DNA from: Candidatus Hermodarchaeota archaeon
GTDB lineage: Archaea; Asgardarchaeota; Lokiarchaeia; Sigyniarchaeales; SOKP01
Assembly: GCA_048885525.1 (NCBI GenBank)
Contig: JBHLLP010000002.1
Location: 1 to 64,000, forward strand
Direction: 5' to 3'
DNA length: 64,000 bases
Positions 4,189 to 60,330 of this stretch are shown here, one piece after another (the first letter of the stretch is position 1; each line of letters opens with the position of its first letter). The position numbers and the translations under genes are program-made. Under the pieces are notes generated by a model that did not search any database, was not told the DNA's origin, and saw only the letters and a list, made by a program, of their open reading frames with translations.

Positions 4189-4851
4189 TTAAGTTACTTC
4201 TTCAGGTAATTTAGCAAATTCAAAAGAATAATGTGATGACGATCGTTCAATAGGTTGAACTTTATTATTGTATGCTGTTCTTATTTTACTTTGAGTGTCG
4301 ATCTTTGTTGATACCCAGTCTATATTGAAATCACTAGGTTGATTAAATATTCGCCAATTAAAAGATTCAACAAATTTTTGAGGTCCAAACTTTTTATCTA
4401 TTAATATATAATTTTCATCATCAATAAATTTAGGAAAAAATCCCAAGTTGTCACATAATTCTAGTTTATATTCAATATCATCTAATTTTCCATTAATTCT
4501 GGCAATATCATTAATAAAATTGCCTAATTTATTTCCTAAATTTATTTGTTTTTCTTCAGACTCATCTTCAATAAGCTTCCTTAAATAACTTCTTTTTATA
4601 ATAATAAAATCCCTATCATTTGATGATTTTATTGATCCTTTCTGTTTAATTATAAATTTAGATAATTCCAAATAATTTCTTATAAAATCAGCTTTAGATA
4701 AACCCAATTTATCTCTTGACTTATCAATATGGTTATTTAATTCTTCATCAATTCTAACAGTGATAACACTTGTTGATTCATGTAGCTTATTTCCCCTATC
4801 GGAAGTATAAATTCCCGAATTTCGAGGTTTAGGATTGGATTTAGGACTAAT
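4189..4851 (-). CDS. Ribbon-helix-helix (CopG-like) domain protein; extended upstream of the track ORF to a probable ATT start
   Basis: Frame is open from 4851: ISPKSNPKPRNSGIYTSDRGNKLHESTSVITVRIDEELNNHIDKSRDKLGLSKADFIRNYL. The RHH pattern straddles the track start at 4707. GAGGTGG at 4857-4863 precedes the ATT. Confidence 0.65.
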   Translation of the reverse strand: MSPKSNPKPRNSGIYTSDRGNKLHESTSVITVRIDEELNNHIDKSRDKLGLSKADFIRNYLELSKFIIKQKGSIKSSNDRDFIIIKRSYLRKLIEDESEEKQINLGNKLGNFINDIARINGKLDDIEYKLELCDNLGFFPKFIDDENYILIDKKFGPQKFVESFNWRIFNQPSDFNIDWVSTKIDTQSKIRTAYNNKVQPIERSSSHYSFEFAKLPEEVT

Positions 4852-5710
4852 TTATACCACCTCAATTTTTATTATCTGTATCATTTGTATGCATTATGCA
4901 ATATATGTAACAAAAAAATATAAATGATAGTATTTTTAAATTTTTGTCAAAAATTATCAAAGATTTTACACATATATAACATGCTTTTTATTACATAATT
5001 AATCAAATGGTTTTTATTAGAAGTTATATTGATATAATAACATCAAGATTTTAAGTCTACTGCCTTAACCTAATTTCGATTAAGCTTAAGTACTTATTTA
5101 AATATAATAGCAAAAAGCAATTAGATTTAAATATCAAGCTGAGTCTTGTCATCACAATTCTAAAGGGGATTGATATTGAAGACATTTAAAGGTGTTCAAT
5201 ATTCTTTAGTCGAGATCTTATTTATTATCTTTAATCTCTAAAAACTTTATTTTTTAAATTATATAAGTAACTTCTAATAAGTGTTTAAAAAATATCGCAA
5301 AAATATGAAAAAATCATAGATTATGTATAAGTGGGATTTTTATAGAAGTTTTAATAGTTTTTAGGAGAATTTTTAACAAAATAAAATTGTATGCTTTAGA
5401 AGAGTTTTGATTATAATAGTATACTAAAGGATATAAAAGTAATCTATAAAAACCTAGAATTGAGAATAAATACTAATTTTCAGGATTCAGGGATAGTTGA
5501 GAAATCTAATTTTATTAAAAGAATACTTTATTAAATAAATAATCCCAAATATAAAAACAAGAATTGTTCAATTTTAATATCAAATGTATATATTATAGTC
5601 TTATGTAATTTTGGGTTACAAATAAGACACAAGGTAAATATAAATATCGTCAAAAATATGAGTTTAATGTATATAAACATAAGAAATTTATTAAGGGTTG
5701 GAAAAAAGTT

Positions 5711-6034
5711 ATGCAAATTCCACAAACTGGTATTTTAGAATTAAATTTGCAGAATAAATCTGAATCAATATCAATAAATTCAGATGAGCAAATTGAAAAG
5801 ATTGTAAAAGCCCTGTCATCACGAACTAGACGCCGAATACTCCATTATATTCAAGAAGAACCAATGGATGTCTCAAATATTGCAGCTAATTTAGGTATGA
5901 CTGAAGCCAATATTTCTGCTCAAATTAAGAAACTTGAAGAAGCAAGTTTAATTACTTGTGATTATGCCTCAGGCGACCATGGAGTTCGTAAAATTAGTAA
6001 GTTAAAATTTAACAAACTTGTAATAGAATTTTAA
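5711..6034 (+). CDS. ArsR/SmtB-family winged-HTH transcriptional regulator
   Basis: KALSSRTRRRIL...MDVSNIAANLGMTEANISAQIKKLEEASLI. Confidence 0.85.
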   Translation: MQIPQTGILELNLQNKSESISINSDEQIEKIVKALSSRTRRRILHYIQEEPMDVSNIAANLGMTEANISAQIKKLEEASLITCDYASGDHGVRKISKLKFNKLVIEF

Positions 6035-6131
6035 AAACTATTAATTTACAACAGAAGGCCTATAATAAGCATCTAAACCATTTCTATACTTAAAATTCTA
6101 AGAATCAAATAAAATTTAACCCTAAGTTAAT

Positions 6132-7715
6132 TTAATTGTTTACTTTTACTGTTTTAATAACTTTTTTCACAATGGGAATAAATTCTTTTTCTTTTTCAAC
6201 AATTTTCGGTTTATTTGTAGTTGAGAGTTTACTTTTTTTTCCGTTTGCCATAATTTCTTTCATTTCATCGGAAATTATATCTGAGGTCATCCCCATGTTA
6301 TGAAGCATTTCTACCCCATTCACTATACACGTTTTAACAAATCGAGGAACGTTTCGTCCCATCCAATTATATCTACCAAATGGATTGCAGTATCTTTTAG
6401 CGAGTAATTTAAGCCAATTTCCACTAAGGTAATAGGCAGAATAAGCTTCAGCTACTAATCTATATATCTCTATATTTGTTAATTGTTCGGTTCTCATCAT
6501 CGGATGAAATAAATTGTAATGCTTATAATTGTGACTGGTGACCATTTTTTTTTCCGTCATTTCATTATAAAAATCAGTTCCAGGAAAAGCTGTAATAGGT
6601 GTGAATTGAATACATGTTAAATTAAGAGATCTCGCAAATTGAATGTTTTCTCTTACCATTGTTTTAGTTTCTCCAGGGAATCCTATAATCACTCCCCCAA
6701 AGATCGAAATTCCACGATCTTGAAGGGATGAGACAACTTTTCTAACCATAGCAGGTGTAGTATTTTGTTTATTCATTGCATCGAGGCTTTGTTGATGGAC
6801 AGATTCAATACCGAGGAAAATTTGTCTCATACCTGCTTTATGCATTAAATCAATTAACCAAGGATATCTATATAGCGTATCAACTCGGGATTGACAGGAG
6901 AAATATAATTTATTTGGAATTCCAGAGCGAATAATAGTTTCAAGGATCTCTTTCGTACGTTTTATTTTAATAGTAAAATTGTCTTCACAGAAAAAGATGA
7001 AATCATTTTTCCAATCAATTTTATAAATTTCTTGCATTATTCGCTTAGTAGATTTTGTTCTATAAGTTACAGGGCGATCCGTATTTCGCCACATTTTAAT
7101 AATACAACAGAATTTACAATTATGCGGACAACCCCGTGAACTTTCAAGTTGAGCGACTCTTGCACCTAAATAAATATATTTTTTATCATCTAATAAATCT
7201 CTACGTGGTATAGGAAAATTATCTAAATTTGGTTCTAATTTTCGGTCTTTATTATGTAGCACATGGTTTTCTTTATTCTTATATGAAATTCCATCAATAG
7301 TTCTTAATGATATATTACGCACATTTCCATCGATATAATCTACAAGCTCGCGAAAAGTGTGTTCTCCTTCACCACGAACAGCATAATCTATAGCAGGATG
7401 TTTTGCTACATATTCAGGAGCTAATGTTGGCTGATATCCACCGATTATGGTAATACACCCATGTTCTTTTGCTATTTGAGCTACTTCAAATGCATGTGAG
7501 ATTTGGGGAGTCATACTTGTGAGAGCTACAATATCGCTTTGATTTAATAATGAACGAAATCTCTTCTCATTATACTTATGGACTTTAAAATCGAATAATT
7601 TCGCATCATGTTCTGGAACCATTGCTGCAATTGAGATTAAACTTAAAGGAGGGCCTTTAATTATTGCATCAAGACCAGAACTTAGTCGAGCAGGATTCAC
7701 ATACAGAATCTTCAT
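6132..7715 (-). CDS. Cobalamin-binding radical SAM protein
   Basis: N-terminal B12-binding domain (PPLSL...IIGGYQPT...VRGEGE), SRGCPHNCKFC, GIES, IIGFPGET. Confidence 0.9.
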   Translation of the reverse strand: MKILYVNPARLSSGLDAIIKGPPLSLISIAAMVPEHDAKLFDFKVHKYNEKRFRSLLNQSDIVALTSMTPQISHAFEVAQIAKEHGCITIIGGYQPTLAPEYVAKHPAIDYAVRGEGEHTFRELVDYIDGNVRNISLRTIDGISYKNKENHVLHNKDRKLEPNLDNFPIPRRDLLDDKKYIYLGARVAQLESSRGCPHNCKFCCIIKMWRNTDRPVTYRTKSTKRIMQEIYKIDWKNDFIFFCEDNFTIKIKRTKEILETIIRSGIPNKLYFSCQSRVDTLYRYPWLIDLMHKAGMRQIFLGIESVHQQSLDAMNKQNTTPAMVRKVVSSLQDRGISIFGGVIIGFPGETKTMVRENIQFARSLNLTCIQFTPITAFPGTDFYNEMTEKKMVTSHNYKHYNLFHPMMRTEQLTNIEIYRLVAEAYSAYYLSGNWLKLLAKRYCNPFGRYNWMGRNVPRFVKTCIVNGVEMLHNMGMTSDIISDEMKEIMANGKKSKLSTTNKPKIVEKEKEFIPIVKKVIKTVKVNN

Positions 7716-7760
7716 CTTTCTAAAATCTTAATTTTATTTTTTTTTTTAGGTGCCTAATCT

Positions 7761-7833
7761 CCACTATCCATATATATAACTAAATAAAGTTAAAAGAGGA
7801 AAAGTGGTACAGAGAAACCTTCAGAGATTTCTC
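7761..7833 (-). promoter_or_regulatory. Putative structured 5' leader (two hairpins) of the B12 radical SAM gene
   Basis: Minus strand has a GAGAAAUC/GGUUUCUC stem, then nested CCACU/AGUGG, UCC/GGA and UAACU/AGUUA stems. TATA-like AAAAGTTTATAAG (7871-7883, minus) lies upstream. Confidence 0.3.
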
Positions 7834-8042
7834 AATAAATAAAACCTTAAGTATTAAAAAGCAGATGATCCTTATAAACTTTTTGTTATGTCTACATAGC
7901 TATAAAAAACACAAAGAAGGCTTAAAAACTAAATATTAAAAAATCATTTTGAGACTGTAGTGTAATAATTATTTAAAATCAATCAATCTTTCTATAAAAG
8001 ATAATTAAGTTTTTATAATTATCAATTATAAATACCATTGTT

Positions 8043-9092
8043 ATGGAAAAAGCAATAGTATCATGCGAAATGGCTAATCAAGGCTATCAAAAAGGTGCTT
8101 GCGAAGTAAAATTGAAAAATGATCTAATTCAACCAGCCTGTAAAGCCACTTTGAAATTCGAAAATGGCCAATATCATAGAGTTATATCGGCTATGCATTT
8201 ATCAAGACCAGAGGATTATTTCTCAATTTATCAATCGGGATGCAATCATAATTGCCTTAAATGCCATTCTTGGGAATTTTCAAAACATTTTAATGGAAAA
8301 TGGTATTCTACTGATGAAATTGCTGAAGAATGTAGAAAATATAAGCAATATGTTACAGTTTTTGAACCAAGAGAGCGTGCATTAATGTATTATGCTAATG
8401 ATTTATGCAGACATTGTGGTTCATGTATTCTTTTCAATAAACGAAATCCATTGTGTCCTAATAAAATTACTAAAGATAAAATCGTATTAGGACCCCAAGG
8501 TTTCGGACCAGCGAGAAATATTATTGCTTTTACAGGGGGGGATATTGCATGTCAAGCAAAATTTTATGCTGAGGCAACAAGTAAGATTAAGTTAAAATGT
8601 GAAAATCTTTGGGTGCTTTTAGAATCAAATGGATATGGACTTACATCAAAAAATCTAGATCTTTTCCAAAAAACAGGGTTGGATTCATTTTGGCTCGATA
8701 TTAAAGCATATGATGAAGAAATTTATAAGAAATTATGTGGAACCTCTAATAAAACTGTACTCAATTCAGTGAAAGAAATAGTTAAAAGAAATTTTATTTT
8801 AGAAATTCTTACTGTTTATATTCCTAATTTTATTGAAATAGACCAATTCGAAAAAATTGCTCAATTAATTGTTGAAATCGATGAGAATATACCTTTTCAT
8901 ATTTTAGCTTTTTTTCCTCAATATAAATTACTAAAAAATCGCCCACCAAATTTAGATGAAATTTTAGAAACTTTTAAGACATTAAAAAGTATTGGTTTAA
9001 AACACATACAAATCGGGAATGTTGGTGTTTTTGCCAAAACTGAGGAAGAAATTAAGAGATTAATAAAAACTGTAGGGCCAAATGCATTTTAA
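8043..9092 (+). CDS. Radical SAM protein, PFL-activating-enzyme-like
   Basis: GCNHNCLKC, FTGGD, ESNGY, WLDIKA, HILAFFPQYKL; extra Cys cluster CRHCGSC...C. Confidence 0.85.
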   Translation: MEKAIVSCEMANQGYQKGACEVKLKNDLIQPACKATLKFENGQYHRVISAMHLSRPEDYFSIYQSGCNHNCLKCHSWEFSKHFNGKWYSTDEIAEECRKYKQYVTVFEPRERALMYYANDLCRHCGSCILFNKRNPLCPNKITKDKIVLGPQGFGPARNIIAFTGGDIACQAKFYAEATSKIKLKCENLWVLLESNGYGLTSKNLDLFQKTGLDSFWLDIKAYDEEIYKKLCGTSNKTVLNSVKEIVKRNFILEILTVYIPNFIEIDQFEKIAQLIVEIDENIPFHILAFFPQYKLLKNRPPNLDEILETFKTLKSIGLKHIQIGNVGVFAKTEEEIKRLIKTVGPNAF

Positions 9093-9104
9093 TTACTCAA
9101 AGCC

Positions 9105-10244
9105 TTATTTAAAATAATCTATAAGAGTATTTTTTATCGATTCAAAATGACCTAAATGGGTTTTAGAAAGATCATCTAGAGCTTCTCTAATGCCTAATTT
9201 TTCAATTCTTTCAGTTATCTTATAATAAGGAGACCCTTTGATTTCCTTTACTAATTCTTTATTTTTTTCTAAATCTTCTAACAAAAACTCATTTGGATTT
9301 ACTTTATGGATTCCAAGCATTCCTTGAATGATTGAAATCAACATTGTATCGAAAGTAATTCTTAAAATCACTTCATGGTCAAAATCTGATTTTAAAGGAA
9401 GTAAATATGTTTTAAGCATAGATATTGACTCTTTAAAAAGGTCAAACGATTTATTTCCTAGTTCTTTAATCCTCTCATTATAGGTATGATCTTCGGATGC
9501 TCTTAAACATAATGCAGATACAGTTTGATATTCTGCAACAAAATGTATAAATCGTGCTTTAGCATTAAGATAGGTCCCTTTTGATTCTTCTGCATCAATT
9601 ATGTCGTCTAATTCATCTAAAGCTTTTCTGAAGTAATTAGCAATCTCGTAAAATTTTTTTGCAGAGGCATTGAATTCTCCTCCAGACAATAAATTGAATG
9701 CTTCTTTTTCTGACAAATCATAAAGTTCATCAAATTTATGTATTTTCATTACCGCTTTTAATATCAGACGTTTACCAATATCTTTTTTAATTCTGGATCG
9801 CTCAAAAGATTGTCCTGCTTTTAAAAGGAGTACTGAAGATAAATTTCTATATTCTTCAGGATCTGTTTCATGCAAATAATCTGAAGCAATTTGCCAAGAT
9901 TCTCCCGCAGTCTCCCAATCATGCATCTTAAAAGATATATTTCCTAATTGAATCAATAATTTTGCAGATACTTCATAAAGTTTTAATTCTTCAGTCTTTC
10001 TGATAATTGACTTCAATCTATAAATAGCTTGAAGATTATTCTTAAATTTTGAAATAATTTGAGTTATTCGTATAAATAATTCATCTAATTTAATATAACT
10101 CCCTAGATCAAGATAAATTGAAGCAGCCTTTTCATAAAAATTGATTGCATCTTCTCCCTTTCCGCGATCAGCTAGATTTTCAGCTTGATCTATTAATCTT
10201 ACAGCCTCCAACTCCTTCTCATCATTGTAACGATTATTAATCAA
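9105..10244 (-). CDS. Alpha-helical repeat (TPR/SNAP-like) protein
   Basis: Repeated helical motifs: AINFYEKAASIY, AGESWQIASDYL, SAKKFYEIANYF. Confidence 0.55.
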   Translation of the reverse strand: MINNRYNDEKELEAVRLIDQAENLADRGKGEDAINFYEKAASIYLDLGSYIKLDELFIRITQIISKFKNNLQAIYRLKSIIRKTEELKLYEVSAKLLIQLGNISFKMHDWETAGESWQIASDYLHETDPEEYRNLSSVLLLKAGQSFERSRIKKDIGKRLILKAVMKIHKFDELYDLSEKEAFNLLSGGEFNASAKKFYEIANYFRKALDELDDIIDAEESKGTYLNAKARFIHFVAEYQTVSALCLRASEDHTYNERIKELGNKSFDLFKESISMLKTYLLPLKSDFDHEVILRITFDTMLISIIQGMLGIHKVNPNEFLLEDLEKNKELVKEIKGSPYYKITERIEKLGIREALDDLSKTHLGHFESIKNTLIDYFK

Positions 10245-10411
10245 AATTTTCTCCTTTTAAATAACGTATTTAGTAATTAATTGATTTAATTAAATTATTT
10301 ATACAAATTACTTAGACTTAATTAAGATATTAAAACCTTAGTATTAATAGCTTTCTATCAATAATTATAACTCCAAACACTTTTAAGATTAAATTTAAAA
10401 GAGTGATTTAG

Positions 10412-11296
10412 TTAAAATTGTTTGAAAAGCTTTATATTTCTGCTTTTTATTATTCTTTTGAATTCAATTGATTGGTATGTAGAGGCAAATGATTCTTTTG
10501 CATCTTCAATTGCTCCATAAAAAATAAAATTGGAAAACCAGGATACAATAAACATAATACTAGCCCTTCTATATCTTGTGTGGTATTTAATATTCAACCT
10601 GGGGGAAGAATATTGAAAAAGAAAGAGATTTGCTGCTGTACCCACTGGAAATTTTAATGAGGTACTTATTAACTGATGAGTTTCAAGAATATGTGCTAAG
10701 CTTTCCAAATCGATAACTCCGCCATCAATCCAGAGTTTTTCAACACCTATTTTTTTTAATCCTTCGATTATATTTAGATTATTCGGCTGATTTCTTTCAA
10801 TAAGATATGCGTATCTTTGGGTTGAAGTCATATTTTCTGACCCAAGTACTAAAATTACAACAGATTTTATTTTGTAATTCTTAATGATTTCTATTTCCTT
10901 TTTGTTTTTTAAATTTGAAATTGTGTTATAAATATATTGATTTGGTTTAACTCCATGTTCAGTAAGATATTCGATTCCAGCTACTCTCGATTCGAAATTA
11001 CCTCCCAGTATAAATGGAGTGGTAAAATGATCAAGATAAAATTCCAAATAATTTATCATTGATTTAGGTGTTGTAGAAGATACTTCAATTAAATTAGGAA
11101 TTTTATATTTCTCAGATAATGATATTTGAGTTTCAATCCTTTTAATTGCTTTTGAAACATTAAAAACTTCTGGATTCCTTCTATCTACTAAAGTCTGGTT
11201 TTGATAAAAAATAGTACCAATTAAAACTGGGGGTAAATCAAAATTTCCCTTTCCTAATTTTATATTCCCATAGGAATAATATTCAGAATTATGCAT
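10412..11296 (-). CDS. MtrH-like (tetrahydromethanopterin S-methyltransferase subunit H family) methyltransferase, divergent
   Basis: PPVLIGTIFY, IYNTI, LKFPVGTAANL and FIFYGAIE follow the MtrH TIM-barrel pattern. No other mtr genes are adjacent. Confidence 0.7.
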   Translation of the reverse strand: MHNSEYYSYGNIKLGKGNFDLPPVLIGTIFYQNQTLVDRRNPEVFNVSKAIKRIETQISLSEKYKIPNLIEVSSTTPKSMINYLEFYLDHFTTPFILGGNFESRVAGIEYLTEHGVKPNQYIYNTISNLKNKKEIEIIKNYKIKSVVILVLGSENMTSTQRYAYLIERNQPNNLNIIEGLKKIGVEKLWIDGGVIDLESLAHILETHQLISTSLKFPVGTAANLFLFQYSSPRLNIKYHTRYRRASIMFIVSWFSNFIFYGAIEDAKESFASTYQSIEFKRIIKSRNIKLFKQF

Positions 11297-11525
11297 TTTT
11301 GATCAGTTATTAAAGATAATATTTAAAATAGGATTAAAGAACTATTTAAACTGGTTGATTTTTTAAGATACTTATACTTTTCAATTAATACATCTTATTA
11401 TAATTAGAGCAATTTTTATTAATTTATCTTATAAAAAATTTATTTTAATAAAAGGAATTAAATGTCAAAAAACTATTAATTAAATTAGAATTTACTAAAT
11501 TTTTCCAAAAAATAAATTGAATAAA

Positions 11526-11774: not shown

Positions 11775-11891
11775 AAACAAAATTTAAATATCAATTTTTA
11801 AACCAGTAAAGTTGGCATAAAGAAAATTAATTTTTAGTTTCAAATTAGCAATTTTTGAAGAATTTTTGAAAGAACCTTAAAAGATGGTTAT

Positions 11892-13097: not shown

Positions 13098-13208
13098 ATT
13101 CTGTAAATTGTGTTTGGGATGTATCCTTTAAAGTATGGTAATTAATCTTTATGATTTAATCGATTTTTTAAATCTTTATTAATTATTAATTATATAAATA
13201 CTGCTTCA

Positions 13209-13262: not shown

Positions 13263-13304
13263 ATAAATTTAAGAATATTAGTAAAAACATAAATTTGATG
13301 CCTA

Positions 13305-23015: not shown

Positions 23016-23241
23016 GATTATTACAATTTACGGTTTTGTTAAATTTAGTACAAATTGGCTAGATAAAGCTCTTTTCTTTTTTTCCTTTTTTTTATTGTTT
23101 TGTGTATCAATACTTTTTCTAAATAGAGTAAAAAATAAATAACATTGAAATAATATTTATAAAATTGTATATAAAAAAGAAACGAGGGAATTTGTTATTT
23201 CTGATGTAAAATTAAATCCTAATCGTTATAATCCTAAATTT

Positions 23242-24474
23242 ATGGAATGGGGAATCATAAATAAGCAAAATTGGGAGGGTCAGACAACATATGACGTTCC
23301 TATTAAGAGATGGGATCCATTATCAACAGTGAGTATACGTACTGAGGATTTTGGCCTTCGAAAAGAACGTATAAGATATTATGGGCATTATTCTTACATA
23401 TCACCAATCAGAGGAATAAGACCGAAAGGATTTAAGACTGATGAGGAAGAAAAGCAATTTCTGGATTGTTCAAAAAAAATATTACGAAAATATAAAGATG
23501 TTTTTAGTTCTGTAACAGAGGGTAGAATTGTTTACGATGATTGGGGAATTCCACTTAGCGATGGTTTTACTATGATTATTACTCAAGATGAAATAAGACG
23601 AGATAATCCGTTTTCAGATACACCACATCAAATAGAAAGAATTCCGGATGCTTGCAAAGCTATAACTTTAATTAACAGGTATCCTTCAATGGCAAGAATT
23701 ATAGATCCCGAAATAGAGAAAGAAATTGTTAAAAAGCTTCCTTCGCATATAAAACTTTCACGCGGTATTAACTTAGTAACGATTTCTCGAAATTTCTATC
23801 CCTCTTTGTGTTTTGATTTAATTCCAGAAGATGTATTAGCAGGTATATTTCTATCTATGAGAGCAGCAATATTATATTGTATTGAAGAATCTATAAATAG
23901 AGACTATTACGATATTCCTGTGATGCCCTTTTTCAATATTGGAACTAAAGTTGGAGGATCTCAACCAAGAATTCATAGTCAAATCTACATAGACCTAGCA
24001 ATGGATGGTCATGGAAGTAGATTAGAGGGATATCTTAGAGCTTTTAAAGAAATGGGAGATAGATGTCATTTATGTAAAACGACGCATGGTGGATCTGATC
24101 GCATTATATTAGAAACGGGATTCTGGACTTTTTACACTACTGGAAGCCCTGTAAGAAATTATCACATAAGATTTCATCCAAATGAGCATATCCGAAGATT
24201 TGCTCAATTAAAAGTCAATCAAATTGAAGATTTGGCAAAATCACTAAAAATAATTTTTCAAGCATTAGATGATATTGAGATCGATAAAAATCGAAATATT
24301 TTATTCAATTGCTGTCCATATGGTTATGATGCTGATTTCCATATGTTTGCTGATATTATCCCTCATGAAATAATTGGTGGCGCTGAAATGGCTGATGATA
24401 TGCGAGTTGCAAGAAAATTACCTCACATTGCAGCTCAAGAAATCAGAAATTCTTTACAAAAGTACTTAATATAA
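23242..24474 (+). CDS. GalT/HIT-superfamily nucleotidyltransferase-like protein (possible ATT start at 23197)
   Basis: DNPF, INRYP, FFNIGTKVGGSQPRIHSQI (compare GalT N.G..AGAS..HPHSQ), CHLC, FHMFADIIP. Confidence 0.7.
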   Translation: MEWGIINKQNWEGQTTYDVPIKRWDPLSTVSIRTEDFGLRKERIRYYGHYSYISPIRGIRPKGFKTDEEEKQFLDCSKKILRKYKDVFSSVTEGRIVYDDWGIPLSDGFTMIITQDEIRRDNPFSDTPHQIERIPDACKAITLINRYPSMARIIDPEIEKEIVKKLPSHIKLSRGINLVTISRNFYPSLCFDLIPEDVLAGIFLSMRAAILYCIEESINRDYYDIPVMPFFNIGTKVGGSQPRIHSQIYIDLAMDGHGSRLEGYLRAFKEMGDRCHLCKTTHGGSDRIILETGFWTFYTTGSPVRNYHIRFHPNEHIRRFAQLKVNQIEDLAKSLKIIFQALDDIEIDKNRNILFNCCPYGYDADFHMFADIIPHEIIGGAEMADDMRVARKLPHIAAQEIRNSLQKYLI

Positions 24475-37343: not shown

Positions 37344-37482
37344 ATATATTGAAAAACTGAAAATTAAAGTTATTTCTCAGAATTGAAATAGCCTTTATTT
37401 ATTAGCAAAATTTAAATAATTCCTTTACAAAATTATATTCTATTATAATTAAACAAATTTATTATTTTTAAGGTGATGTTAT

Positions 37483-38217
37483 ATCTCTAAATTTAAAGAA
37501 TCGTTAGGGAACATTCGGGAAAAATATAAAAGTATAAAAGAAATTAATAGAAATATAATTTCCACAATTTTCATAGCTATCATAACTTTATTCATTGGAT
37601 TATTAATAACTTATATTGTTTTTCATTTAATACCTGGAGATCCAATTTTAGCTCAATTACCACTACACTTTACTGAAGAACAGTATATCTATATGGCCAA
37701 TCGATTAGGATTTGAATATAATCCATTTTTAGATACCTATATCCTACAATTTTCTCGCTTTCTTGGTGATCTGCTCAATGGTGCTTGGGGTTGGTCAAGT
37801 TCTTTAAACCGAGGCATGCCTGTTTATGAAATGCTTTCTGAATACACTATATTTCTACATTTGATAATAATAGCTATAATCCCACTAATCATTGGTATAG
37901 TTTATATGATAAAGTCAACGCATCGAAAATTAATAGTTTTCAATACACTAGTAATTGTAATAACTCTGGGTTGTACCTTTGGAGTATATATGGCATTTAG
38001 TGAACTATTTAATATCAGAGGATTTGGATCACTTTTAATAGATGCCTACATCTACTATGATCATTACGTTATAGTTGGATGTTCATTCATAATAGTGATA
38101 ATGTTTGTTCTCATACCTTTAATATCAAATGTTATCCTTAGCGTCTATAAATTGCGATTAAGTAAATCTCTTGAGAGAGATATCGAATCAAATTTGAAAA
38201 ATGCTACAAATGCATAA
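37483..38217 (+). CDS. Shortened DppB/OppB-like ABC permease; probable ATC start
   Basis: Frame is open from 37477. IITLFIGLLITYIVFHLIPGDP...RLG...QFSRFLGDLLNGAWGWS and ELFNIRGFGSLLIDA...DHYVIVG are DppB motifs. AAGGTGAT at 37470-37477. Confidence 0.65.
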   Translation: MSKFKESLGNIREKYKSIKEINRNIISTIFIAIITLFIGLLITYIVFHLIPGDPILAQLPLHFTEEQYIYMANRLGFEYNPFLDTYILQFSRFLGDLLNGAWGWSSSLNRGMPVYEMLSEYTIFLHLIIIAIIPLIIGIVYMIKSTHRKLIVFNTLVIVITLGCTFGVYMAFSELFNIRGFGSLLIDAYIYYDHYVIVGCSFIIVIMFVLIPLISNVILSVYKLRLSKSLERDIESNLKNATNA

Positions 38218-44943: not shown

Positions 44944-45381
44944 TTAATAATCAAGATTGACATTAATTTCAATTCCTTTTCTTAAGGATTCTGATATTAT
45001 GCAATATTGTTCAAAAAATCTTTGACATTGATCTGCTCTTTTACGCATTTCAGGGTTTTTTATTATTGGTTCGATATTAACATCGATCTTTTTTATTCTC
45101 CAAAAATCTTTATCATTACGAGCAATTATAACTTCAGCGCTTCCATTAAGATCTGATAAAATGAAACCTGTTTTTTGCAAACAAAATTCAAAACTTAAAC
45201 TTAAACAACTTAGAATAGATAAAGCTAATAATTTTGCAGGAGAGGGTCCTATTTTCTCTTTGATATTTTTACGACTTTCGTCAATATATAAACTTTGCAT
45301 TTTAATTCCTCCAAGATCACATCTATATATCATCTCTTCTTCCTTTTTTAAGCTTACTTTAGGTCTTAATTCGTGAGACAT
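44944..45381 (-). CDS. OsmC/Ohr family protein
   Basis: GPSPAKLLALSILSCLSLSFEFCL...FEQYCIISESL. Confidence 0.85.
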   Translation of the reverse strand: MSHELRPKVSLKKEEEMIYRCDLGGIKMQSLYIDESRKNIKEKIGPSPAKLLALSILSCLSLSFEFCLQKTGFILSDLNGSAEVIIARNDKDFWRIKKIDVNIEPIIKNPEMRKRADQCQRFFEQYCIISESLRKGIEINVNLDY

Positions 45382-45421
45382 ATGAAATCACTGTTCTTTT
45401 TTATTTTTCAATTTAAAAAAA

Positions 45422-45898
45422 TTATAAATTAAGATTAACATTAACCTCGATTCCTGCTCTGACACTTTGTGTTACTATACAATATTGCTCAAAGAAGTTA
45501 ACTCCGTTGCTTGTTTCTTTAAGGCATTGCTTTGCTCTTTTAAGTGCCTCAGGGTCGGTAATTGTAGGATCTACTTCAACGTTGATATTTTTTATTCTCC
45601 AAAATCCTTTTTCATTTCTCATAATAGTCACTTCCGCTTCTGCCTTAAAATCATCTACATGTAAATTTCTTTTCTTCAAACAAAAGATAAAACTGGCGCT
45701 TAGGCAGCCAGTGACTCCCAAAGCTAAAAGCCTTGAAGGATTTGGTCCAAGCATATCCACTTCTTCATGATGTTCTTCATCAATATAACAATCTTTAACC
45801 TTCATATTGCCTAAATCGCATTTAAAAATCATTTGCGATTCAGATTCACCTAGTTTAATACCAACTTTAGTTTTTATTTCATTCGAAATAAGAATCAC
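45422..45898 (-). CDS. OsmC/Ohr family protein (start may be ATT at 45889)
   Basis: GPNPSRLLALGVTGCLSASFIFCL...FEQYCIVTQSV. Confidence 0.85.
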   Translation of the reverse strand: MILISNEIKTKVGIKLGESESQMIFKCDLGNMKVKDCYIDEEHHEEVDMLGPNPSRLLALGVTGCLSASFIFCLKKRNLHVDDFKAEAEVTIMRNEKGFWRIKNINVEVDPTITDPEALKRAKQCLKETSNGVNFFEQYCIVTQSVRAGIEVNVNLNL

Positions 45899-45910
45899 CC
45901 TATTAGTATA

Positions 45911-46426
45911 TCATTTAGAGCTTAAATTTTTAAAAAGAGAGAATAAATTTTCTTTTTTTGACTTGTCATCTCTAATTTCTTGGAATAATTGTTCAATTTC
46001 AGCTAATTTTATTTTGTAATACTTCAAATCCTCCTTGATTTCTGATTGAATTATTGATAATTGAAAAGAATCATTCATTTTACATGCAGTCTTAACAAAT
46101 TTTAAACATTGATTAATTCTTTCATAAACTATAGCATCATCAAATAATTTATCGACTATGATATTAATTTGATTAACTAGCCAATCTCCGCTTTCTTTTT
46201 TCATAATATGCAATTGAACTTTAGGAAAATCTAATTCTTGTCTATTAATTCTCAAGCAATTAACTAAACTTGCGTTTAGGCAATTTATTATTGTCTTACT
46301 GTTAATTATTGGATCATGTGTAGTTAACAAGTTAATATCTTCTTCATTTAGTTCTTCAAGAATACAACTATATAAGTTAGTATCATTTAAATCACAATTA
46401 AATACTTTTATCTCATTCTGATTCAA
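45911..46426 (-). CDS. Divergent OsmC-like paralog with C-terminal helical extension
   Basis: FNCDL, INCLNASLVNCL, DWLVNQINI and QCLKFVKTAC align with the two neighbouring OsmC proteins. Confidence 0.55.
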   Translation of the reverse strand: MNQNEIKVFNCDLNDTNLYSCILEELNEEDINLLTTHDPIINSKTIINCLNASLVNCLRINRQELDFPKVQLHIMKKESGDWLVNQINIIVDKLFDDAIVYERINQCLKFVKTACKMNDSFQLSIIQSEIKEDLKYYKIKLAEIEQLFQEIRDDKSKKENLFSLFKNLSSK

Positions 46427-46507
46427 AGCTATCCACTTAAGAGATGATTTTTTTATTTTCTTTAGATTAAATAATTAAAAGTTTTACAAAAACTTTTTAA
46501 TTTTGAT

Positions 46508-50932: not shown

Positions 50933-52756
50933 CTAAATAGATTGTATTCTTATTTTATGTATAAGTTTATTTTTTATTTCTTCAAGCTGTTGGAACTCAT
51001 CATTTGGTACCATTTGGCTGATACGTAAAATAGAGGTTGTAAGGTCTGGATCTAATATATCTTTAATTAACTTTCCTTGTTTTATTAGGTTTTTACCTTC
51101 TTTGTATAAAATAAGGATGATTTTGATTAAACCTAATAATTTTGTTATATTAGTATGATTGTCAATCTCATCATATGCATTTTGAATTAAAAATCCATTT
51201 TTTATCATTTTTGCTATAAAGAGTGTTAATTGCTGGTCTTCTAGTAAATTTTTATCTCCAGCTAACTGAATTACATGCTCTAAATCTTGTTCTTGAGATA
51301 AAATTTCGTTAACTAGTTTTCTACATTCTGACCACTCAATTTCTATTTCTGGCCAATCAATATCTCTCTCATACCACCAATCTGCAATAAATTGAGGGTA
51401 ATTTGAATATGAATTATTCCAATTAATGGCAGGATAATGCTTTAAATATGCCAATTTTGGATCTAACGCCCAAAAAGTTTGAACTAATCGTTTAGTTGTT
51501 GAGGTAACTGGTTCACTAAAATCTCCCGCTGGAGGAGAAATTGTACCTACAATAGTTATTGAACCATTTCTCTCATTTCCTTTTTGATCCGTCCCCAAAG
51601 TTTTAACAAAACCAGCTCTTTCATAAAAACTTGACAATTTCGATGGTAGGTAGGCAGGATATCCTTCTTCAGCGGGCATTTCTTCTAATAATCCCGAAAT
51701 TTCTCGTAAAGATTCAGCCCATCTTGATATACTATCCGCAAGAACAACAACATCATAACCCATGTCCCTATAATATTCTGCAATTGTTACTCCAGAAAAT
51801 AAGCTAGCTTCCCGAGCAGAAACTGGCATATTAGAAGTATTAGCCATAAGTATAATTCGGTCTGACAAAGTTCTTCCACTTTTAGAGTCTATTATTTCAG
51901 AGAATTCCTTCATTATATTAGCAATTTCGTTTCCTGGTTCGCCGCAACCAACATATACAATCAAATCTGCTCTACACCATTTAGCTAACATTTGTTGGAT
52001 AACAGTTTTTCCTGTTCCAAAACCACCCGGAATTGCTGTCGTTCCTCCTTTAGCGATTGGAAATAATAAATCAATAGTGCGAATTCCGGTAATTAATGGT
52101 TCTATAGGATTTAATCTCTTATTATATGGACGTCTTTTTGTAATCGGCCACTTTTGTAACATCGCAAATGATTTTTCTTCATGTTTCAGTTTTATTCTAA
52201 ATATCTCATCAATGATCGTATAAGTACCTTCATTTACAATAAAGGAAAGGGTTCCGGTAATATTAGGAGGGACCATGATTCTGTGTTCTATAGATGAAGT
52301 TTCTTGGACAGCTCCAATTATATCCCCATTTTCAACTTTGTCATTAATTTTTCTTAATGGTTTAAAATACCATTTTTTGCTTCTTGAGATAGAAGGATAT
52401 TGTATACCTCTTTCTAACATTCCAGAAAGGATATCCTCAAAAACTATTCCTAAAGGTCTCTGTAATCCATCGAACACATTTGAAAGAAGGCCAGGAGCCA
52501 ATTCCATGGAAAGAGGTTCATTCAAACTAATAACGTCATCATAGAGTTTCAAGTTTGTAGTATTTTCGAAACATTGAGCAACAATATGGTCTGAATAAAT
52601 TTGGATTACTTCACCCAAAATGTTATATTTAGTAATTTTAATTAAATCATGAAGACGAGTTTGATTTTCTAGTCCTTTGACTTTAATCAATGATCCTATG
52701 ATTGCTGAGATATATCCACAATTGAATTTCTTTTTTGAATCATTTTGATTAAGCAT
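50933..52756 (-). CDS. atpA: A/V-type ATP synthase subunit A, second copy with GEPGNE instead of GERGNE
   Basis: GGFGTGKT, NTSNMPVSAREAS, SRWAESLREISG, PAEEGYPAYL, SPPAGDFSEPVT. Confidence 0.9.
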   Translation of the reverse strand: MLNQNDSKKKFNCGYISAIIGSLIKVKGLENQTRLHDLIKITKYNILGEVIQIYSDHIVAQCFENTTNLKLYDDVISLNEPLSMELAPGLLSNVFDGLQRPLGIVFEDILSGMLERGIQYPSISRSKKWYFKPLRKINDKVENGDIIGAVQETSSIEHRIMVPPNITGTLSFIVNEGTYTIIDEIFRIKLKHEEKSFAMLQKWPITKRRPYNKRLNPIEPLITGIRTIDLLFPIAKGGTTAIPGGFGTGKTVIQQMLAKWCRADLIVYVGCGEPGNEIANIMKEFSEIIDSKSGRTLSDRIILMANTSNMPVSAREASLFSGVTIAEYYRDMGYDVVVLADSISRWAESLREISGLLEEMPAEEGYPAYLPSKLSSFYERAGFVKTLGTDQKGNERNGSITIVGTISPPAGDFSEPVTSTTKRLVQTFWALDPKLAYLKHYPAINWNNSYSNYPQFIADWWYERDIDWPEIEIEWSECRKLVNEILSQEQDLEHVIQLAGDKNLLEDQQLTLFIAKMIKNGFLIQNAYDEIDNHTNITKLLGLIKIILILYKEGKNLIKQGKLIKDILDPDLTTSILRISQMVPNDEFQQLEEIKNKLIHKIRIQSI

Positions 52757-52780
52757 TTAACATCATATAATTCAATTAAC

Positions 52781-53200
52781 TTAACTTATTTGTTTATTAC
52801 AAAATGGACATTTTTTAACGAAACTTGGCAAAATATTTCCACAACTTTGACATTTTTTAATTAAAGGTTTATGAGACCGAATTTCTAAATTTATAGGTCC
52901 AGGTATTCTTGGTAGGGATGTTTTTTCTCTTATCATTCTAGTTCGTTTATTAACTGAAGATTTTCGCTTTCTATCTGGAAACATTTCAGAATATAACGAT
53001 CTTTTAGTTCCTTTAAAGAATAAGCCAAGTCCAACTAGAAATAAGAAGGATAATCCAAAAATTACGATAAAAGGGTTAAAATTTAAACTTATTAAATAAA
53101 AGAATAGGATTAAGAGGACTAAGGAGTATATAACTAAAAGTACAATTCTTTTTTTATTTCTTTTATATGTATATCTATTTTGGATATTTTCGGTTGCCAT
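52781..53200 (-). CDS. Two-TM protein with C-terminal zinc ribbon, inside the ATP synthase operon
   Basis: Two hydrophobic helices; CQSCG...CPFC. Confidence 0.75.
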   Translation of the reverse strand: MATENIQNRYTYKRNKKRIVLLVIYSLVLLILFFYLISLNFNPFIVIFGLSFLFLVGLGLFFKGTKRSLYSEMFPDRKRKSSVNKRTRMIREKTSLPRIPGPINLEIRSHKPLIKKCQSCGNILPSFVKKCPFCNKQIS

Positions 53201-53238
53201 TTATTATTAACTTACATTTTAAATACTTGGTTGATAAC

Positions 53239-55725: not shown

Positions 55726-55749
55726 AATTATCACTTTCAATTTATTTTT

Positions 55750-56385
55750 TTATTTTTCAATAATTAGATCTTTAGTTTTTTTTAATCTGACATAATTTTC
55801 TCTGTCAACTTCCTCTAATATATCTTTTATTAGTTTTATATTAGATTGTAATTGAGGAATTATGATGTTTTTTAAACCATTTATCCTACGATTGATTTTC
55901 TTAAAGTTTATTGCTTGCTTTAAAAGTAAATCTTCAATTTCAGAAAATTCAATTATCTTATTAAAAAATGATTTTAAAGATTTAATTAAATCATCTAAAT
56001 AATGACTCGTATTGTCAAATGTATAAGCAGGTAATTTTTCTTCTTGAATTAGTTCATATGAAATTTGGGGATTAGTAATTCCTACTACTTTTTTGTAAAA
56101 AATCTCAATTGTAGGTTTGTATTGAATTCTACTTAAATTACTTATCAAAAATAATTCATTTTTACCCATCTCTTCATAAGTAAGATTTAATAATTTCATT
56201 GATTCTTTAAAAAGGGTGAGAAATTCTTTTCTAGATTTATTATAATCTTTCCATATAGAACGAAGTAAAATAATTAATTGTTCTCTTCTTAATTCTAAAA
56301 AATTTTCTCCTTTTTGAGCAAAATTTAATCTCTTACGTAAATTTATTAAGTTCGTTTTACTGGGTTTTATCTCTCTAAAACTTAT
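55750..56385 (-). CDS. atpD: A/V-type ATP synthase subunit D; probable ATA start
   Basis: Conserved N-terminus KPSKTNLINLRKRLNFAQKGENFLELRREQL lies 62 codons upstream of the first ATG. C-terminus KINRRINGLKNIIIP...EVDRENYVRLKKTK. Confidence 0.88.
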   Translation of the reverse strand: MSFREIKPSKTNLINLRKRLNFAQKGENFLELRREQLIILLRSIWKDYNKSRKEFLTLFKESMKLLNLTYEEMGKNELFLISNLSRIQYKPTIEIFYKKVVGITNPQISYELIQEEKLPAYTFDNTSHYLDDLIKSLKSFFNKIIEFSEIEDLLLKQAINFKKINRRINGLKNIIIPQLQSNIKLIKDILEEVDRENYVRLKKTKDLIIEK

Positions 56386-56388
56386 TCT

Positions 56389-57780
56389 TTACACCTTTCC
56401 AGAATAATATTTATCAATAAATTTTTGATGAATTCGAAGTAATTGATTTTCAGTTAAATTACCTAATACATCCCAAGCGATATTAAGAGTATGTTCGAAA
56501 TTACGGTTCTCATCTGGTTGTTGATTTAAAAATGTTTGTTCAAATTCTTTCCCGTATTTCAACAAATTATTCTGTTCATAGTTTAACCCATCTTCTCCGA
56601 CAATTGAAATAAGGTCTTTAACTTCTAAATAATTTGAATAAGATGCTAATAATTGAGAGGATGTGTCTGCATGATCCTCTCTTGTTTTTTCACTACCAAT
56701 AGCATCCTTCATTAAACGTGATATTGAAGCTAAAACTTCAAAAGGAGGGTAGATACCTTTTTGGTGCAAACTTCGACTTAAAACTAATTGCCCTTCAGTG
56801 ATGTATCCTGTTGTATCTGGAATAGGATGAGATATATCATCATTAGGCATAGTTAAAATAGGTATTTGAGTAATTGAACCCTTTTTACCTTTAATTTTTC
56901 CTGTTCTTTCATAAATAGATGCAAAATCTGAATAGATGTATCCTGGATATCCTTTTCTGCTAGGAATTTCTTCCTTTGCTGAACTAAGTTCTCTTAACGC
57001 CTCAGCATAGTTCGTTATGTCTATTAGAATAACAAGAACATGCATGTCTTTTTCAAAAGCAAAGTATTCTGCAGTAGTCAAAGCTACTCTAGGTATAATT
57101 AACCTTTCAATTATTGGATCATCTGCAAAATTTATGAATGAAATTATATTTTGGATTGTACCCCGTTCTTGAAATTTATTTAAAAAATAAATTGCTTCAT
57201 CTTGAATAATCCCAATTCCACAAAATATAATTACAAAAGGTTCTTCTGAAGTAACTTTTGCCTGAGTTGCTATTTGAGCAGCTAACTTATTGTGTGGTAA
57301 TCCTTGTGCGCTAAAGATTGGAAGTTTTTGGCCTCTAATTAAAGTAAATAACCCATCTATAACAGATACTCCTGTTTGTATAACATCGACAGGATATTCT
57401 CTCGCATATGGATTAATTGGAAGGCCATTTATATCTCTTTGAATATCAGTTAGAACCTCAGATTCTGAAATCATTTTAGTTTTTATGTCTATGGGTTTAC
57501 CTAGTGAATTAAAAGTCTGCCCAAACATATCTTTAGAAATGTTTACTTTAAAAACATCTTCCGTAAATATTATCTCAGCATTTTCAGATGACAATCCAGA
57601 AGTATCTTCAAAAACTTCCACAACTATTACGTCCTCATTCAATTTTACTATCTGACCCGTACGAGTTTTGCCATCATCTGTGTTAATTTTAACAATCTCA
57701 CCATATTGAGCATCATGTTCGTTTTTAAGAAATACTAATGGACCTATTATTTGGTGAATTTTTCTATAAATTACACTCAT
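56389..57780 (-). CDS. atpB: A/V-type ATP synthase subunit B
   Basis: RGQKLPIFS, GLPHN, ALTTAEY, YAEALRE, RKGYPGY, HPIPDTTGYITEGQ, SRLM. Confidence 0.95.
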   Translation of the reverse strand: MSVIYRKIHQIIGPLVFLKNEHDAQYGEIVKINTDDGKTRTGQIVKLNEDVIVVEVFEDTSGLSSENAEIIFTEDVFKVNISKDMFGQTFNSLGKPIDIKTKMISESEVLTDIQRDINGLPINPYAREYPVDVIQTGVSVIDGLFTLIRGQKLPIFSAQGLPHNKLAAQIATQAKVTSEEPFVIIFCGIGIIQDEAIYFLNKFQERGTIQNIISFINFADDPIIERLIIPRVALTTAEYFAFEKDMHVLVILIDITNYAEALRELSSAKEEIPSRKGYPGYIYSDFASIYERTGKIKGKKGSITQIPILTMPNDDISHPIPDTTGYITEGQLVLSRSLHQKGIYPPFEVLASISRLMKDAIGSEKTREDHADTSSQLLASYSNYLEVKDLISIVGEDGLNYEQNNLLKYGKEFEQTFLNQQPDENRNFEHTLNIAWDVLGNLTENQLLRIHQKFIDKYYSGKV

Positions 57781-57782
57781 TC

Positions 57783-59621
57783 TTATTTAAATACCCCATG
57801 GGTTAATTTTAAAGATTCTATTTCATTCAGTAAATTACTTTTTAAATTGTCAATTTTGTCGAAATTTTCGTTCTCAATTGTACGATTAATTCTTAAAATG
57901 TCACGTATCACTTTTAGTTCTTTAATTTCTTCTATAAAAAATCCTTTTTCTAACAGTTCTTCGCCTTCTTTATATAATAATAGAATAATTTTAATCATTC
58001 CTAAAAGTTTTTTCGCGTTTGTAAAGTTATCAATATTATCGAAAGCATTTTGGATTAAAAACCCATCTTTGATTAACTTAGCAATAAATATAATTAATCG
58101 TTGATCTTCTGGGAGATTTTCCTCTCCGATAAGTTGTACAATATATCTTAACTCATTATCTTTTGAGAGAATCTCATTTACTTGTTGACGACAATCATGC
58201 CAATCTATATCAATTTCTGTCCAATCTATATCTCTTTCATACCACCATTCGGAAATATAATCTGGATAATTAGAATAAGAATTTAGCCAATTAATTGCAG
58301 GATAGTGCTTTGAATATGCTAACGCAGCATCTAAAGCCCAGATACCTTGTACAAAATTTTTAGTCGTAGCTGTAACTGGTTCACTAAAATCTCCTGCTGG
58401 AGGTGAAATAGAACCTATAATAGTTAAAGATCCTACTTTTTCTTCTTTAGTTTCTTTTTTTCCAATTAATTTAACAGCTCCAGCCCGTTCATAAAAACTT
58501 GAAAGTTTTGAAGGTAAATATGCAGGATAACCTTCTTCTGCAGGCATTTCTTCTAATAATCCAGAGATTTCTCTTAAGGATTCTGCCCATCTTGATGTGC
58601 TATCTGCAAGAACTGCAACGTCATACCCCATATCTCGATAGTATTCAGCAATCGTTACACCAGAGAAGATGCTAGCTTCACGTGCTGAAACTGGCATGTT
58701 TGAAGTGTTAGCAATCAAAATTATTCGATCTAATAGAGGTTGACCAGATTTAGGATCAATTAATTCAGAAAATTGTTTTAAAACATCGGCTATCTCGTTA
58801 CCACGTTCGCCACAACCTACAAATACAATTACATCGGCATCACACCATTTTGCTAATGATTGTTGAATGACTGTTTTACCGGTCCCGAAACCTCCAGGAA
58901 CTCCAATTGTACCACCTTTAGTAATGGGAAATAATAAATCTATTACTCTTATCCCTGTGATTAAAGGTTCATTAGGTAATTTTCTCTCTTTAAAGGGACG
59001 TGAAATAGTTATTGGCCATTTTTGTAGCATTGAAAAACTTTTTTCTGTATCCCCAATTTGCAATTTATAGATTTTATCAATAATTGTAAAGTCTCCTTCA
59101 TCTGCTAGGAAAGTTAATTTTCCTGAAGTATTAGGAGGTATCATTATTTTGTGTTGTATAATTGGAGTTTCTTGGACTGTACCAATAATATCACCACCAC
59201 TTACATATTTATCAATATTATCATTAGGTAAAAAATGCCATTTCTTTGAACGTGAAAGGGAGGGGATTTCTAATCCTCTATGTAATCCTCCACTTTTAAA
59301 AAAATCGAAAGCTTCTTGTAAAGGTCTTTGAATTCCATCAAAGAAATTCCTCAGTAATCCAGGTGCTAATTCCATAGAAAGAGGTTCTCTCAAATTAACA
59401 ACTTCTTCATTGATTCGTAAATTATTAGTATCCTCAAAGCATTGACAAACTACATGATCAGAATATATTTGAATAACTTCTCCTAAAATGTTATGTTTAG
59501 ATATTTTAACAAGATCATGAATTCGAATCTGGGTTTCTAGTCCTTTAACTTTAATCAATGAGCCAATTACAGCTGAGATATACCCAACTTTAAAATTGGT
59601 TTCAGAATTGGATTTGTTCAT
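57783..59621 (-). CDS. atpA: A/V-type ATP synthase subunit A (canonical catalytic copy)
   Basis: GGFGTGKT, GCGERGNE, NTSNMPVSAREAS, DSTSRWAE. Confidence 0.95.
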   Translation of the reverse strand: MNKSNSETNFKVGYISAVIGSLIKVKGLETQIRIHDLVKISKHNILGEVIQIYSDHVVCQCFEDTNNLRINEEVVNLREPLSMELAPGLLRNFFDGIQRPLQEAFDFFKSGGLHRGLEIPSLSRSKKWHFLPNDNIDKYVSGGDIIGTVQETPIIQHKIMIPPNTSGKLTFLADEGDFTIIDKIYKLQIGDTEKSFSMLQKWPITISRPFKERKLPNEPLITGIRVIDLLFPITKGGTIGVPGGFGTGKTVIQQSLAKWCDADVIVFVGCGERGNEIADVLKQFSELIDPKSGQPLLDRIILIANTSNMPVSAREASIFSGVTIAEYYRDMGYDVAVLADSTSRWAESLREISGLLEEMPAEEGYPAYLPSKLSSFYERAGAVKLIGKKETKEEKVGSLTIIGSISPPAGDFSEPVTATTKNFVQGIWALDAALAYSKHYPAINWLNSYSNYPDYISEWWYERDIDWTEIDIDWHDCRQQVNEILSKDNELRYIVQLIGEENLPEDQRLIIFIAKLIKDGFLIQNAFDNIDNFTNAKKLLGMIKIILLLYKEGEELLEKGFFIEEIKELKVIRDILRINRTIENENFDKIDNLKSNLLNEIESLKLTHGVFK

Positions 59622-60330
59622 AATACTTTAAGTATTCTGTTATTTTTCCCCTCTGTTTATTGATAAATTTTTCATATTCTTTTTCAATTTCTTTAATTTC
59701 TGAATCATCTATAATTTTAGTAACTTTGTTTTGGATAAATGGTGATGCCTTATCTATCAAATTATTAATAGTGTAATCATACGAGATAATCCCTCCTATA
59801 AGTGATATTTTGAAACCTCCTATAAAATCACGTAGATCTTTGTTAATTTCAACAGGATCTTTAAATAAATTTCCAATTTTATCAAAATTTTTGATAAAAT
59901 AATTATAGTCTTTTGAATTAAATAAAATTTCTATGGAATGAGCTTTATCCATGGTATTTTTAACTTCTTCAATAGATTTTAATAAGTAATCAATATATCC
60001 TGAATAATTTTTCTTAATTTTGTTTTCAATAAGAATAAATAAGCTTTTTTTTAACTCCTGAATTAGATTATTCTTTAATCCAAGAAATTTATTTTTTCCT
60101 TCTAAAAGTGTTGATGATAAGGATTGATTTAGAAACTGCTCATAAGTTTCTATAAGATGACTTTTTAATCTTTGAGATCTTTCATTACTTCTTTCTAAAA
60201 ACCTTTTCATAATTTCAGCTTTTTGAAATAAGGTTTTTTGACTTAATTCTTTTATCTCTCTTTGAGCCTTCTCGATAAAGTAATACCCTAATTGACTAAA
60301 TTGTTTCTTTAATTCTTTTTCTTCTGAAAT
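59602..60330 (-). CDS. atpE: A/V-type ATP synthase subunit E; probable ATT start
   Basis: Lies between F and A; coiled-coil N-terminus, C-terminal IGGFKI....ISYDYTI. Frame is open 40 codons upstream of the track ATG. Confidence 0.75.
   Translation of the reverse strand: MSEEKELKKQFSQLGYYFIEKAQREIKELSQKTLFQKAEIMKRFLERSNERSQRLKSHLIETYEQFLNQSLSSTLLEGKNKFLGLKNNLIQELKKSLFILIENKIKKNYSGYIDYLLKSIEEVKNTMDKAHSIEILFNSKDYNYFIKNFDKIGNLFKDPVEINKDLRDFIGGFKISLIGGIISYDYTINNLIDKASPFIQNKVTKIIDDSEIKEIEKEYEKFINKQRGKITEYLKYYEQIQF

Follow-up and report, generated by a model that had tools for sequence, protein, structure and literature searches.

Probable translation initiation at AUU, AUA and AUC codons behind GGTG-type Shine-Dalgarno sequences in a Lokiarchaeia archaeon

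Where does a protein begin when its coding sequence extends upstream of every in-frame ATG, GTG and TTG? Six genes raise this question in a 64,000-nucleotide stretch (the window; C2:1-64000) of a Candidatus Hermodarchaeota archaeon of the Lokiarchaeia, known from a 3.58-Mb metagenome-assembled genome (MAG) of 29% GC that is 99% complete and whose AtpD is 72-93% identical to named Promethearchaeota/Promethearchaeia records, Loki_b32 among them. A sequence-only reading of the window had proposed that this lineage routinely initiates at AUA, AUU and AUC (here AUH, or ATH in DNA, as opposed to the canonical ATG, GTG and TTG) when a Shine-Dalgarno sequence (SD) or a coupling stop codon is present, and that standard gene callers truncate its proteins. 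The proposal of routine AUH initiation is supported independently by genome-wide SD-by-frame statistics, by orthologues in which ATG or TTG takes the place of ATH, and by N-terminal homology. Very probably, about 3-5 of every 100 genes in this genome and its relatives begin at ATT, ATA or ATC, 6-8 nt behind a GGTG-type SD.

All six sites, each an ATH codon followed by a Ser codon, are present with their upstream motifs and stops as that reading had described them, and four of the six lie on the minus strand. The genes and their signals are as follows, the posteriors being those of the start-site model introduced below.

4189..4851, minus strand: 220-aa conserved protein, start ATT-AGT; no Pfam match; posterior 1.00
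4858..4863, minus strand: SD GAGGTG, 6 nt 5' of the ATT at 4851; from sequence and 16S-tail complementarity
23184..23189, plus strand: SD-like GAGGGA, mostly GAGGTA in relatives; from sequence and orthologues
23197..24474, plus strand: 425-aa highly conserved protein, start ATT-TCT; no Pfam match; ATT/ATC at 25/25 genus loci
37471..37477, plus strand: SD AGGTGAT of gene 37483; from sequence
37483..38217, plus strand: 244-aa membrane protein that looks like a peptide ABC permease, start ATC-TCT; no Pfam hit; posterior 0.93
45422..45889, minus strand: OsmC-like protein (Pfam PF02566), start ATT-TCG; posterior 0.97
45894..45899, minus strand: SD GGTGAT of gene 45889; from sequence
55750..56385, minus strand: atpD, A/V-type ATP synthase subunit D (Pfam PF01813; PDB alignment), start ATA-AGT
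56392..56396, minus strand: SD AGGTG within the last codons of atpB; from sequence, the GGTG core recurring in 21/21 genus genomes
59602..60330, minus strand: probable atpE by operon position, start ATT-TCA; no Pfam hit
60334-60332, minus strand: atpF stop TAA, ending 2 nt before the atpE ATT
60337..60343, minus strand: one-mismatch SD GAGTTGA inside the end of atpF; from sequence, AGGTGA in G014 and G016

At these sites the next ATG, GTG or TTG lies 15-70 codons downstream; the exception is gene 45889, which has an in-frame GTG at 45898, 3 codons upstream and within its SD. At 4851 a TAA immediately precedes the ATT and the next canonical start is codon 49, and at 23197 the next ATG is codon 16. 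An in-frame TGA stands 3 codons upstream of both 37483 (next ATG at codon 71) and 60330 (codon 41), and a TAA stands 2 codons upstream of the atpD ATA (codon 63). Coding sequence does extend ahead of the first canonical start, as atpD bears out: from its residue 5 on, the protein aligns with solved V/A-ATPase D chains, beginning at their residues 2-3, the Pfam model begins at residue 12, and the 62 codons before the next ATG hold the start of the domain.

Across the genome, ATH codons were counted in open reading frames (ORFs) that have an SD match of at least 5 nt but lack a canonical start at SD distance. The 3' tail of the 16S rRNA, GGAUCACCUCC, is standard and complementary to the SD motifs; its stretch GAUCACCUCC is complementary to the SD GAGGTG of gene 4189..4851. 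At SD distance, ATH occurred in frame in 96/251 cases and out of frame in 33/520 (p=5e-27), an excess of about 80 genes, or 16% of SD-led starts. A stricter count gave 61/149 in frame against 19/281 out of frame (p=4e-17). An expectation-maximisation (EM) model that allowed any of the 61 sense codons as a start assigned to strong SDs 226 ATG, 63 TTG, 49 ATT, 26 ATA, 17 GTG, 11 ATC, 4 ACG and 3 CTG starts and at most 1 for each remaining codon; without an SD, ATH stayed at background level. The total comes to roughly 80-150 ATH starts among some 3,100 ORFs (3-5%), or about 16-21% of strong-SD starts. SD-led ORFs without a canonical start numbered 199/615 here, against 6/92 in the Clostridium plasmid pSOL1, an AT-rich bacterial control in which at most about one ATH start was plausible.

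The confident ATH calls include uS12, uL16, L7Ae, eS26, proteasome alpha and a TFB-like protein, all identified from sequence, the identity of uS12 having been checked against the PDB. Callers restricted to ATG, GTG and TTG would truncate 52/69 confident ATH genes by a median of 23.5 codons, as anticipated; for the other 17/69 they would be offered an upstream canonical codon, mostly the GTG of the SD.

The signal ahead of these codons is of a particular kind. Inner SDs (GGTGA, AGGTG or GTGAT) precede 59/64 ATH starts as compared to 125/224 ATG starts with strong SDs (p=2e-8). In a model-free comparison at aligned spacing 4-6, ATH made up 79/152 in-frame codons behind inner SDs and 10/45 behind outer SDs (p=5e-4). 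The in-frame ATH fraction, likewise model-free, is sharply peaked 6-8 nt after GGTG (26/55, 36/59 and 17/38), as compared to about 6% out of frame; canonical starts share this peak and occupy a wider range of spacings. The -3/+4 context showed no standout difference between ATH and ATG genes. Nor did the Ser codon that recurs at all six sites prove to be peculiar to ATH starts: Ser at +2 follows 21% of SD-led ATH candidates, 20% of ATG starts and 7% of internal Ile codons, and Gly, Ala, Pro and Lys occupy this position in uS12, uL16, eS26 and aIF1. A Ser+2 rule was therefore rejected; the 34% seen among model calls is circular, because the second codon enters into the model's score.

Orthologues at the same codon were compared mainly among genomes of the genus, which are kin and not independent. 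For atpD, 21 genus genomes have ATA (11), ATT (6) or ATC (4) and never ATG, and in nine genes from other families the homologous codon, or one adjoining it, is ATG (7) or TTG (2). Sixteen genus relatives start atpE at ATT (12) or ATA (4), again never at ATG. At the 25 genus loci of gene 23197 the ATT or ATC lies behind GAGG(T/C/G), in one case offset by a codon, and at several of these loci a stop precedes it in frame by 3-7 codons. Gene 37483 has ATT-TCT at the same codon in both relatives found, and the OsmC gene has ATT, ATA or ATC in 8 relatives. Gene 4851 is more permissive, with ATG in 15 orthologues, TTG in 6 and ATT in 5, this genome included. The predicted interchange of ATG and ATH at one codon is thus seen within the genus at 4851 and between families at atpD. 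The SDs of gene 4851 are stronger with ATT than with ATG (p=0.005, among kin), which fits the SD compensation documented for GUG and UUG starts (PMC5622118). As to the alternative of an SD or a coupling stop, it is the SD that is conserved: stops lie near the atpD and atpE starts, where coupling may help, yet they change frame or distance among relatives that keep the SD at its usual spacing.

The class also includes the gene of an initiation factor, aIF1, which starts at ATT in 21/21 genus genomes, its first canonical codon being codon 89 of 107. This genome carries two copies:

G000:C32 32305-32520, minus strand: aIF1/SUI1 gene, near-cognate start ATT; from sequence
C2 79646-79861, plus strand: aIF1/SUI1 paralogue, start probably ATA; from sequence

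The aIF1 start is ATT or ATA in the family's other genera and ATA in two genomes of family f2; five or six further Asgard families have candidate ATA or CTG starts behind SDs, and others have ATG, GTG or TTG. A second copy of similar kind occurs in G175 and G155. Separately, a Gly-to-Phe change after loop 1 of aIF1 is common to the whole order, and f1/f2 have ASGG instead of ACGG.

Beyond the genus, the ATH excess is significant in other f2 genomes (p=0.005 and 0.02) and in G070 (p=0.004). In the latter, a 1.42-Mb single contig of the distant family f5 (L242-L245, L153), ATA or ATT behind GGTGAT-type SDs is in frame in 5/15 cases and out of frame in 1/42; the trait is therefore not limited to Lokiarchaeia. 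Pooled other families gave p=5e-4, a value inflated by the aIF1 genes used to choose the loci. The excess was not significant in G038, f4, G080, G106 and G094, sampled at 120-440 kb, which is too small to show absence.

We consider it likely that the AUH codons are real starts, positioned by the SD and decoded by a normal initiator Met-tRNA that tolerates a third-base mismatch. A GGUG(A)-type SD would pair with the inner 16S tail (UCACC) and, through a fixed spacing of 6-8 nt, bring the codon into the P site, where its A and U would pair with the CAU anticodon and the mismatch of U, A or C with C34 would be tolerated, with Met as the presumed first residue. AUG would be usable with any SD type, at many spacings or with no SD, and AUH almost only with a tight SD anchor. 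The single initiator-type tRNA found has anticodon CAU, A1-U72, three G-C pairs and an intron, and looks normal. The genes for aIF1A, aIF2-beta, aIF2-gamma and KsgA are all present and start at ATG.

Several points weigh against this interpretation. No lineage-specific defect was found in aIF1 loop 1 (R/K-R/K-W-G), which matches other Asgards, and an aIF1 defect was rejected as the cause; with these factors present and loop 1 normal, the apparatus offers no explanation for the commonness of AUH. The presence of uS12, uL16, L7Ae and eS26 in the class is hard to square with a start of 10% efficiency. We infer an output below that of AUG, which the stronger SDs accompanying ATT at gene 4851 would fit, but in this lineage the loss may be small and AUH may come close to AUG in efficiency. 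Finally, ATG genes served as the training set of the EM model, and which calls count as confident depends in part on the SD class and spacing window that it uses.

Of the other explanations the most viable, though we hold it distinctly less probable, is that relaxed fidelity and AT mutation pressure have produced real AUH starts that are tolerated behind good SDs and drift without regulatory meaning. Because G makes up only 8.6% of four-fold sites, ATG to ATH is a favoured mutation; gene 4851 swaps freely among ATG, TTG and ATT, and even ribosomal proteins tolerate AUH. Drift fits less well with the gene-specific pattern, in which atpB, atpH, atpK and atpF have ATG almost always (atpB in 17/17 genus genomes despite SD-like sequence upstream, atpF in 15/16) and atpD, atpE, 23197 and aIF1 have ATH always. 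In these last four there is no ATG in 83 sites, and aIF1 is solely ATT, which is suggestive, given that the genomes are kin. Such conservation of start class suggests selection, and points to a setting or coupling of initiation rates. The most interesting case is aIF1: archaeal aIF1 destabilises non-AUG complexes (PMC6237735), and its own AUU would make aIF1 synthesis sensitive to its proofreading, like that of bacterial IF3.

A start class of exactly three Ile codons could also reflect an Ile-charged tRNA or a second, AUH-matched initiator tRNA, possibly tied to loss of TiaS (agmatidine synthetase), which was found in 0/41 genomes of the order and was not found in five other Asgard families, the ATH-positive f5 among them; most others have TiaS. 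We regard this as improbable. Neither a second initiator tRNA nor a tRNA-Ile(UAU) was found in a recovered tRNA set that is incomplete owing to introns, and the tRNA-Ile(GAU) shows the features of an elongator. ACG and CTG also serve as starts in this way: atpC has ATG in this genome, ACG in 13 genus relatives (L061-L080) and ATA in one. These starts follow the same near-cognate pattern and would not be explained by an Ile-specific tRNA. Loss of TiaS was rejected as the cause for want of clean co-variation with the trait, as TiaS-positive families also have ATA or CTG aIF1 starts and a small sample of the TiaS-negative f15 shows no ATH excess. ATA remains in common use for Ile. Internal ATA aligns with Met in 3% of cases, with the same profile as ATT and ATC, and ATG does so in 34%; internal ATA thus behaves as Ile, and a mitochondria-type reassignment of AUA to Met was rejected.

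Less probable still is a true start at the GTG within the SD, bridged to the ATH frame by stop readthrough, frameshift or reinitiation, or a readthrough fusion with the preceding gene. The GGTG core does contain GTG, which is in frame at 45889, and atpD here reads GTG-TAA-AGA-ATA in frame with atpB. Genome-wide, the GTG within the SD occurs in each of the three frames (16/25/11), and a GTG start would be without an SD of its own. Among atpD relatives the GGTG core is retained in differing reading frames; the GTG and the atpB stop shift frame and the ATH stays 6-9 nt away. The OsmC gene of G008 has an in-frame stop between the in-SD GTG and its ATH codon. Errors of sequencing or assembly, or start mutations in pseudogenes, conceivable in a MAG, are extremely unlikely: for each gene the same codon class recurs in 16-25 genomes that were assembled independently, and the genes are essential and single-copy, with their frames intact. 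The orthologues exclude errors and pseudogenes and, at least largely, readthrough.

A broader arrangement can tentatively be sketched. Asgard initiation might be two-tiered, with AUG serving starts that have no SD or are only loosely positioned, and a second route, on which an SD anchors the codon tightly, accepting AUH and ACG or CUG, the near-cognate start of aIF1 setting stringency for some 100 genes that include ribosome, proteasome and ATP-synthase subunits. We put this forward as a speculation that is more apt to be wrong than right; if true, it would be an archaeal forerunner of the eukaryotic eIF1 feedback on start-codon stringency.

The codons ATT, ATC and ATA are alternative starts in NCBI translation table 11, and animal mitochondria use AUH starts, read AUA as Met and lack SDs. 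Frequent AUU and AUC starts in an AT-rich genome also occur in Mycoplasma gallisepticum (PMC5499595). Both are reduced genomes of parasite or organelle, in contrast to a 3.6-Mb free-living archaeon with internal AUA read as Ile and strict SD dependence. SD-led AUH-started genes are known in bacteria from infC (IF3), with AUU or AUA and autoregulation, and from E. coli pcnB (PMC5499595). As in infC, a proofreading-factor gene here has a conserved AUU start; the apparatus differs in being archaeal (aIF1, aIF1A and aIF2), and feedback would be a conjecture by analogy. E. coli has two AUU genes, as compared to AUH starts in about 3-5% of genes here, or in 16-21% when strong-SD starts are counted, and AUU, AUC, AUA and CUG make up 0.004-0.024% of annotated bacterial starts (PMC5499595). 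In S. aureus, infC (AUA), cvfC1 (AUU), ccpN (AUA) and citZ (AUA) likewise combine a near-cognate codon, a strong start-proximal SD and conservation, and AUA or AUU behind extended SDs yields about 10-30% of AUG output (PMC13009471). Those are four genes established by Ribo-Ret and reporters, as opposed to about 80-150 recognised here from sequence, ribosomal proteins included. Eukaryotic eIF1 is autoregulated through the poor context of its own start, a suboptimal start in a homologous factor, but by scanning, Kozak context and AUG (references in PMC6237735), whereas here an SD positions a non-AUG codon.

In archaea, Haloferax profiling saw near-cognate alternative sites and set them aside (PMC7261190), and reviews give AUG, GUG and UUG as the only archaeal starts and SDs as rare in Lokiarchaea (PMC7531240, PMC12993045). 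Literature searches, which did not extend to subscription papers, turned up no account of such starts in Asgard archaea. The kind is thus known from bacteria; what is new is the scale, the archaeal setting, the strict need for an inner SD and the use by ribosomal proteins. An SD-led minority of genes carries a start class at least 100-fold above bacterial annotation rates, and aIF1 belongs to that class, so that autoregulation of start-codon stringency by aIF1, as by IF3 and eIF1, a long-standing question, becomes directly testable. For annotation, a few percent of Lokiarchaeia proteins would be truncated, mis-started or missed where only ATG, GTG and TTG are allowed, among them ribosomal proteins, ATP-synthase stalk subunits, proteasome alpha and aIF1, in genomes that feed phylogenomic and structural work on eukaryote origins.

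Some neighbouring observations concern start sites. On the minus strand at 10241/10244 of the window, a TTG-ATT stands right behind AAAGGAG, an ambiguous seventh candidate for which the model favours ATT (0.85) over TTG (0.12). The ATT-started OsmC-like gene is one of two tandem paralogues (44944-45387 and 45422-45889, minus strand), the other starting at ATG, and a more distant third gene lies beside the pair (45911-46474, minus strand). The A/V-ATPase cluster has the order K, C, H, F, E, A, B, D, I, small membrane protein and second A; its two A-subunit-like genes (50933-52756 and 57783-59627, minus strand) in a single cluster are an arrangement shared by relatives. In several f2 genomes (L083-L085, L089) atpK starts at ACG or ATT.

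Two further genes were considered as non-canonical starts and rejected. Selenoprotein use is known for Lokiarchaeia, and an HdrA-like ORF without a start (near 11434 of G000:C64, plus strand) has instead a TGA at a conserved Cys position, read as selenocysteine; a tRNA-Sec lies at C8 66342-66434 (minus strand). The aIF2-gamma gene (G000:C19 31922-33175, minus strand, outside the window) is in fact an ATG gene split in its P-loop (GHVDHG-K-T) by a 30-nt hairpin insert. In-frame stops in aIF2-gamma occur in just 3/18 genus matches and therefore do not explain a genus-wide trait. The insert holds an in-frame TGA, its removal restores Gly-Lys-Thr, and it resembles a bulge-helix-bulge intron in a protein-coding gene; the protein also has an N-terminal extension of about 105 aa with helix-hairpin-helix-like repeats.

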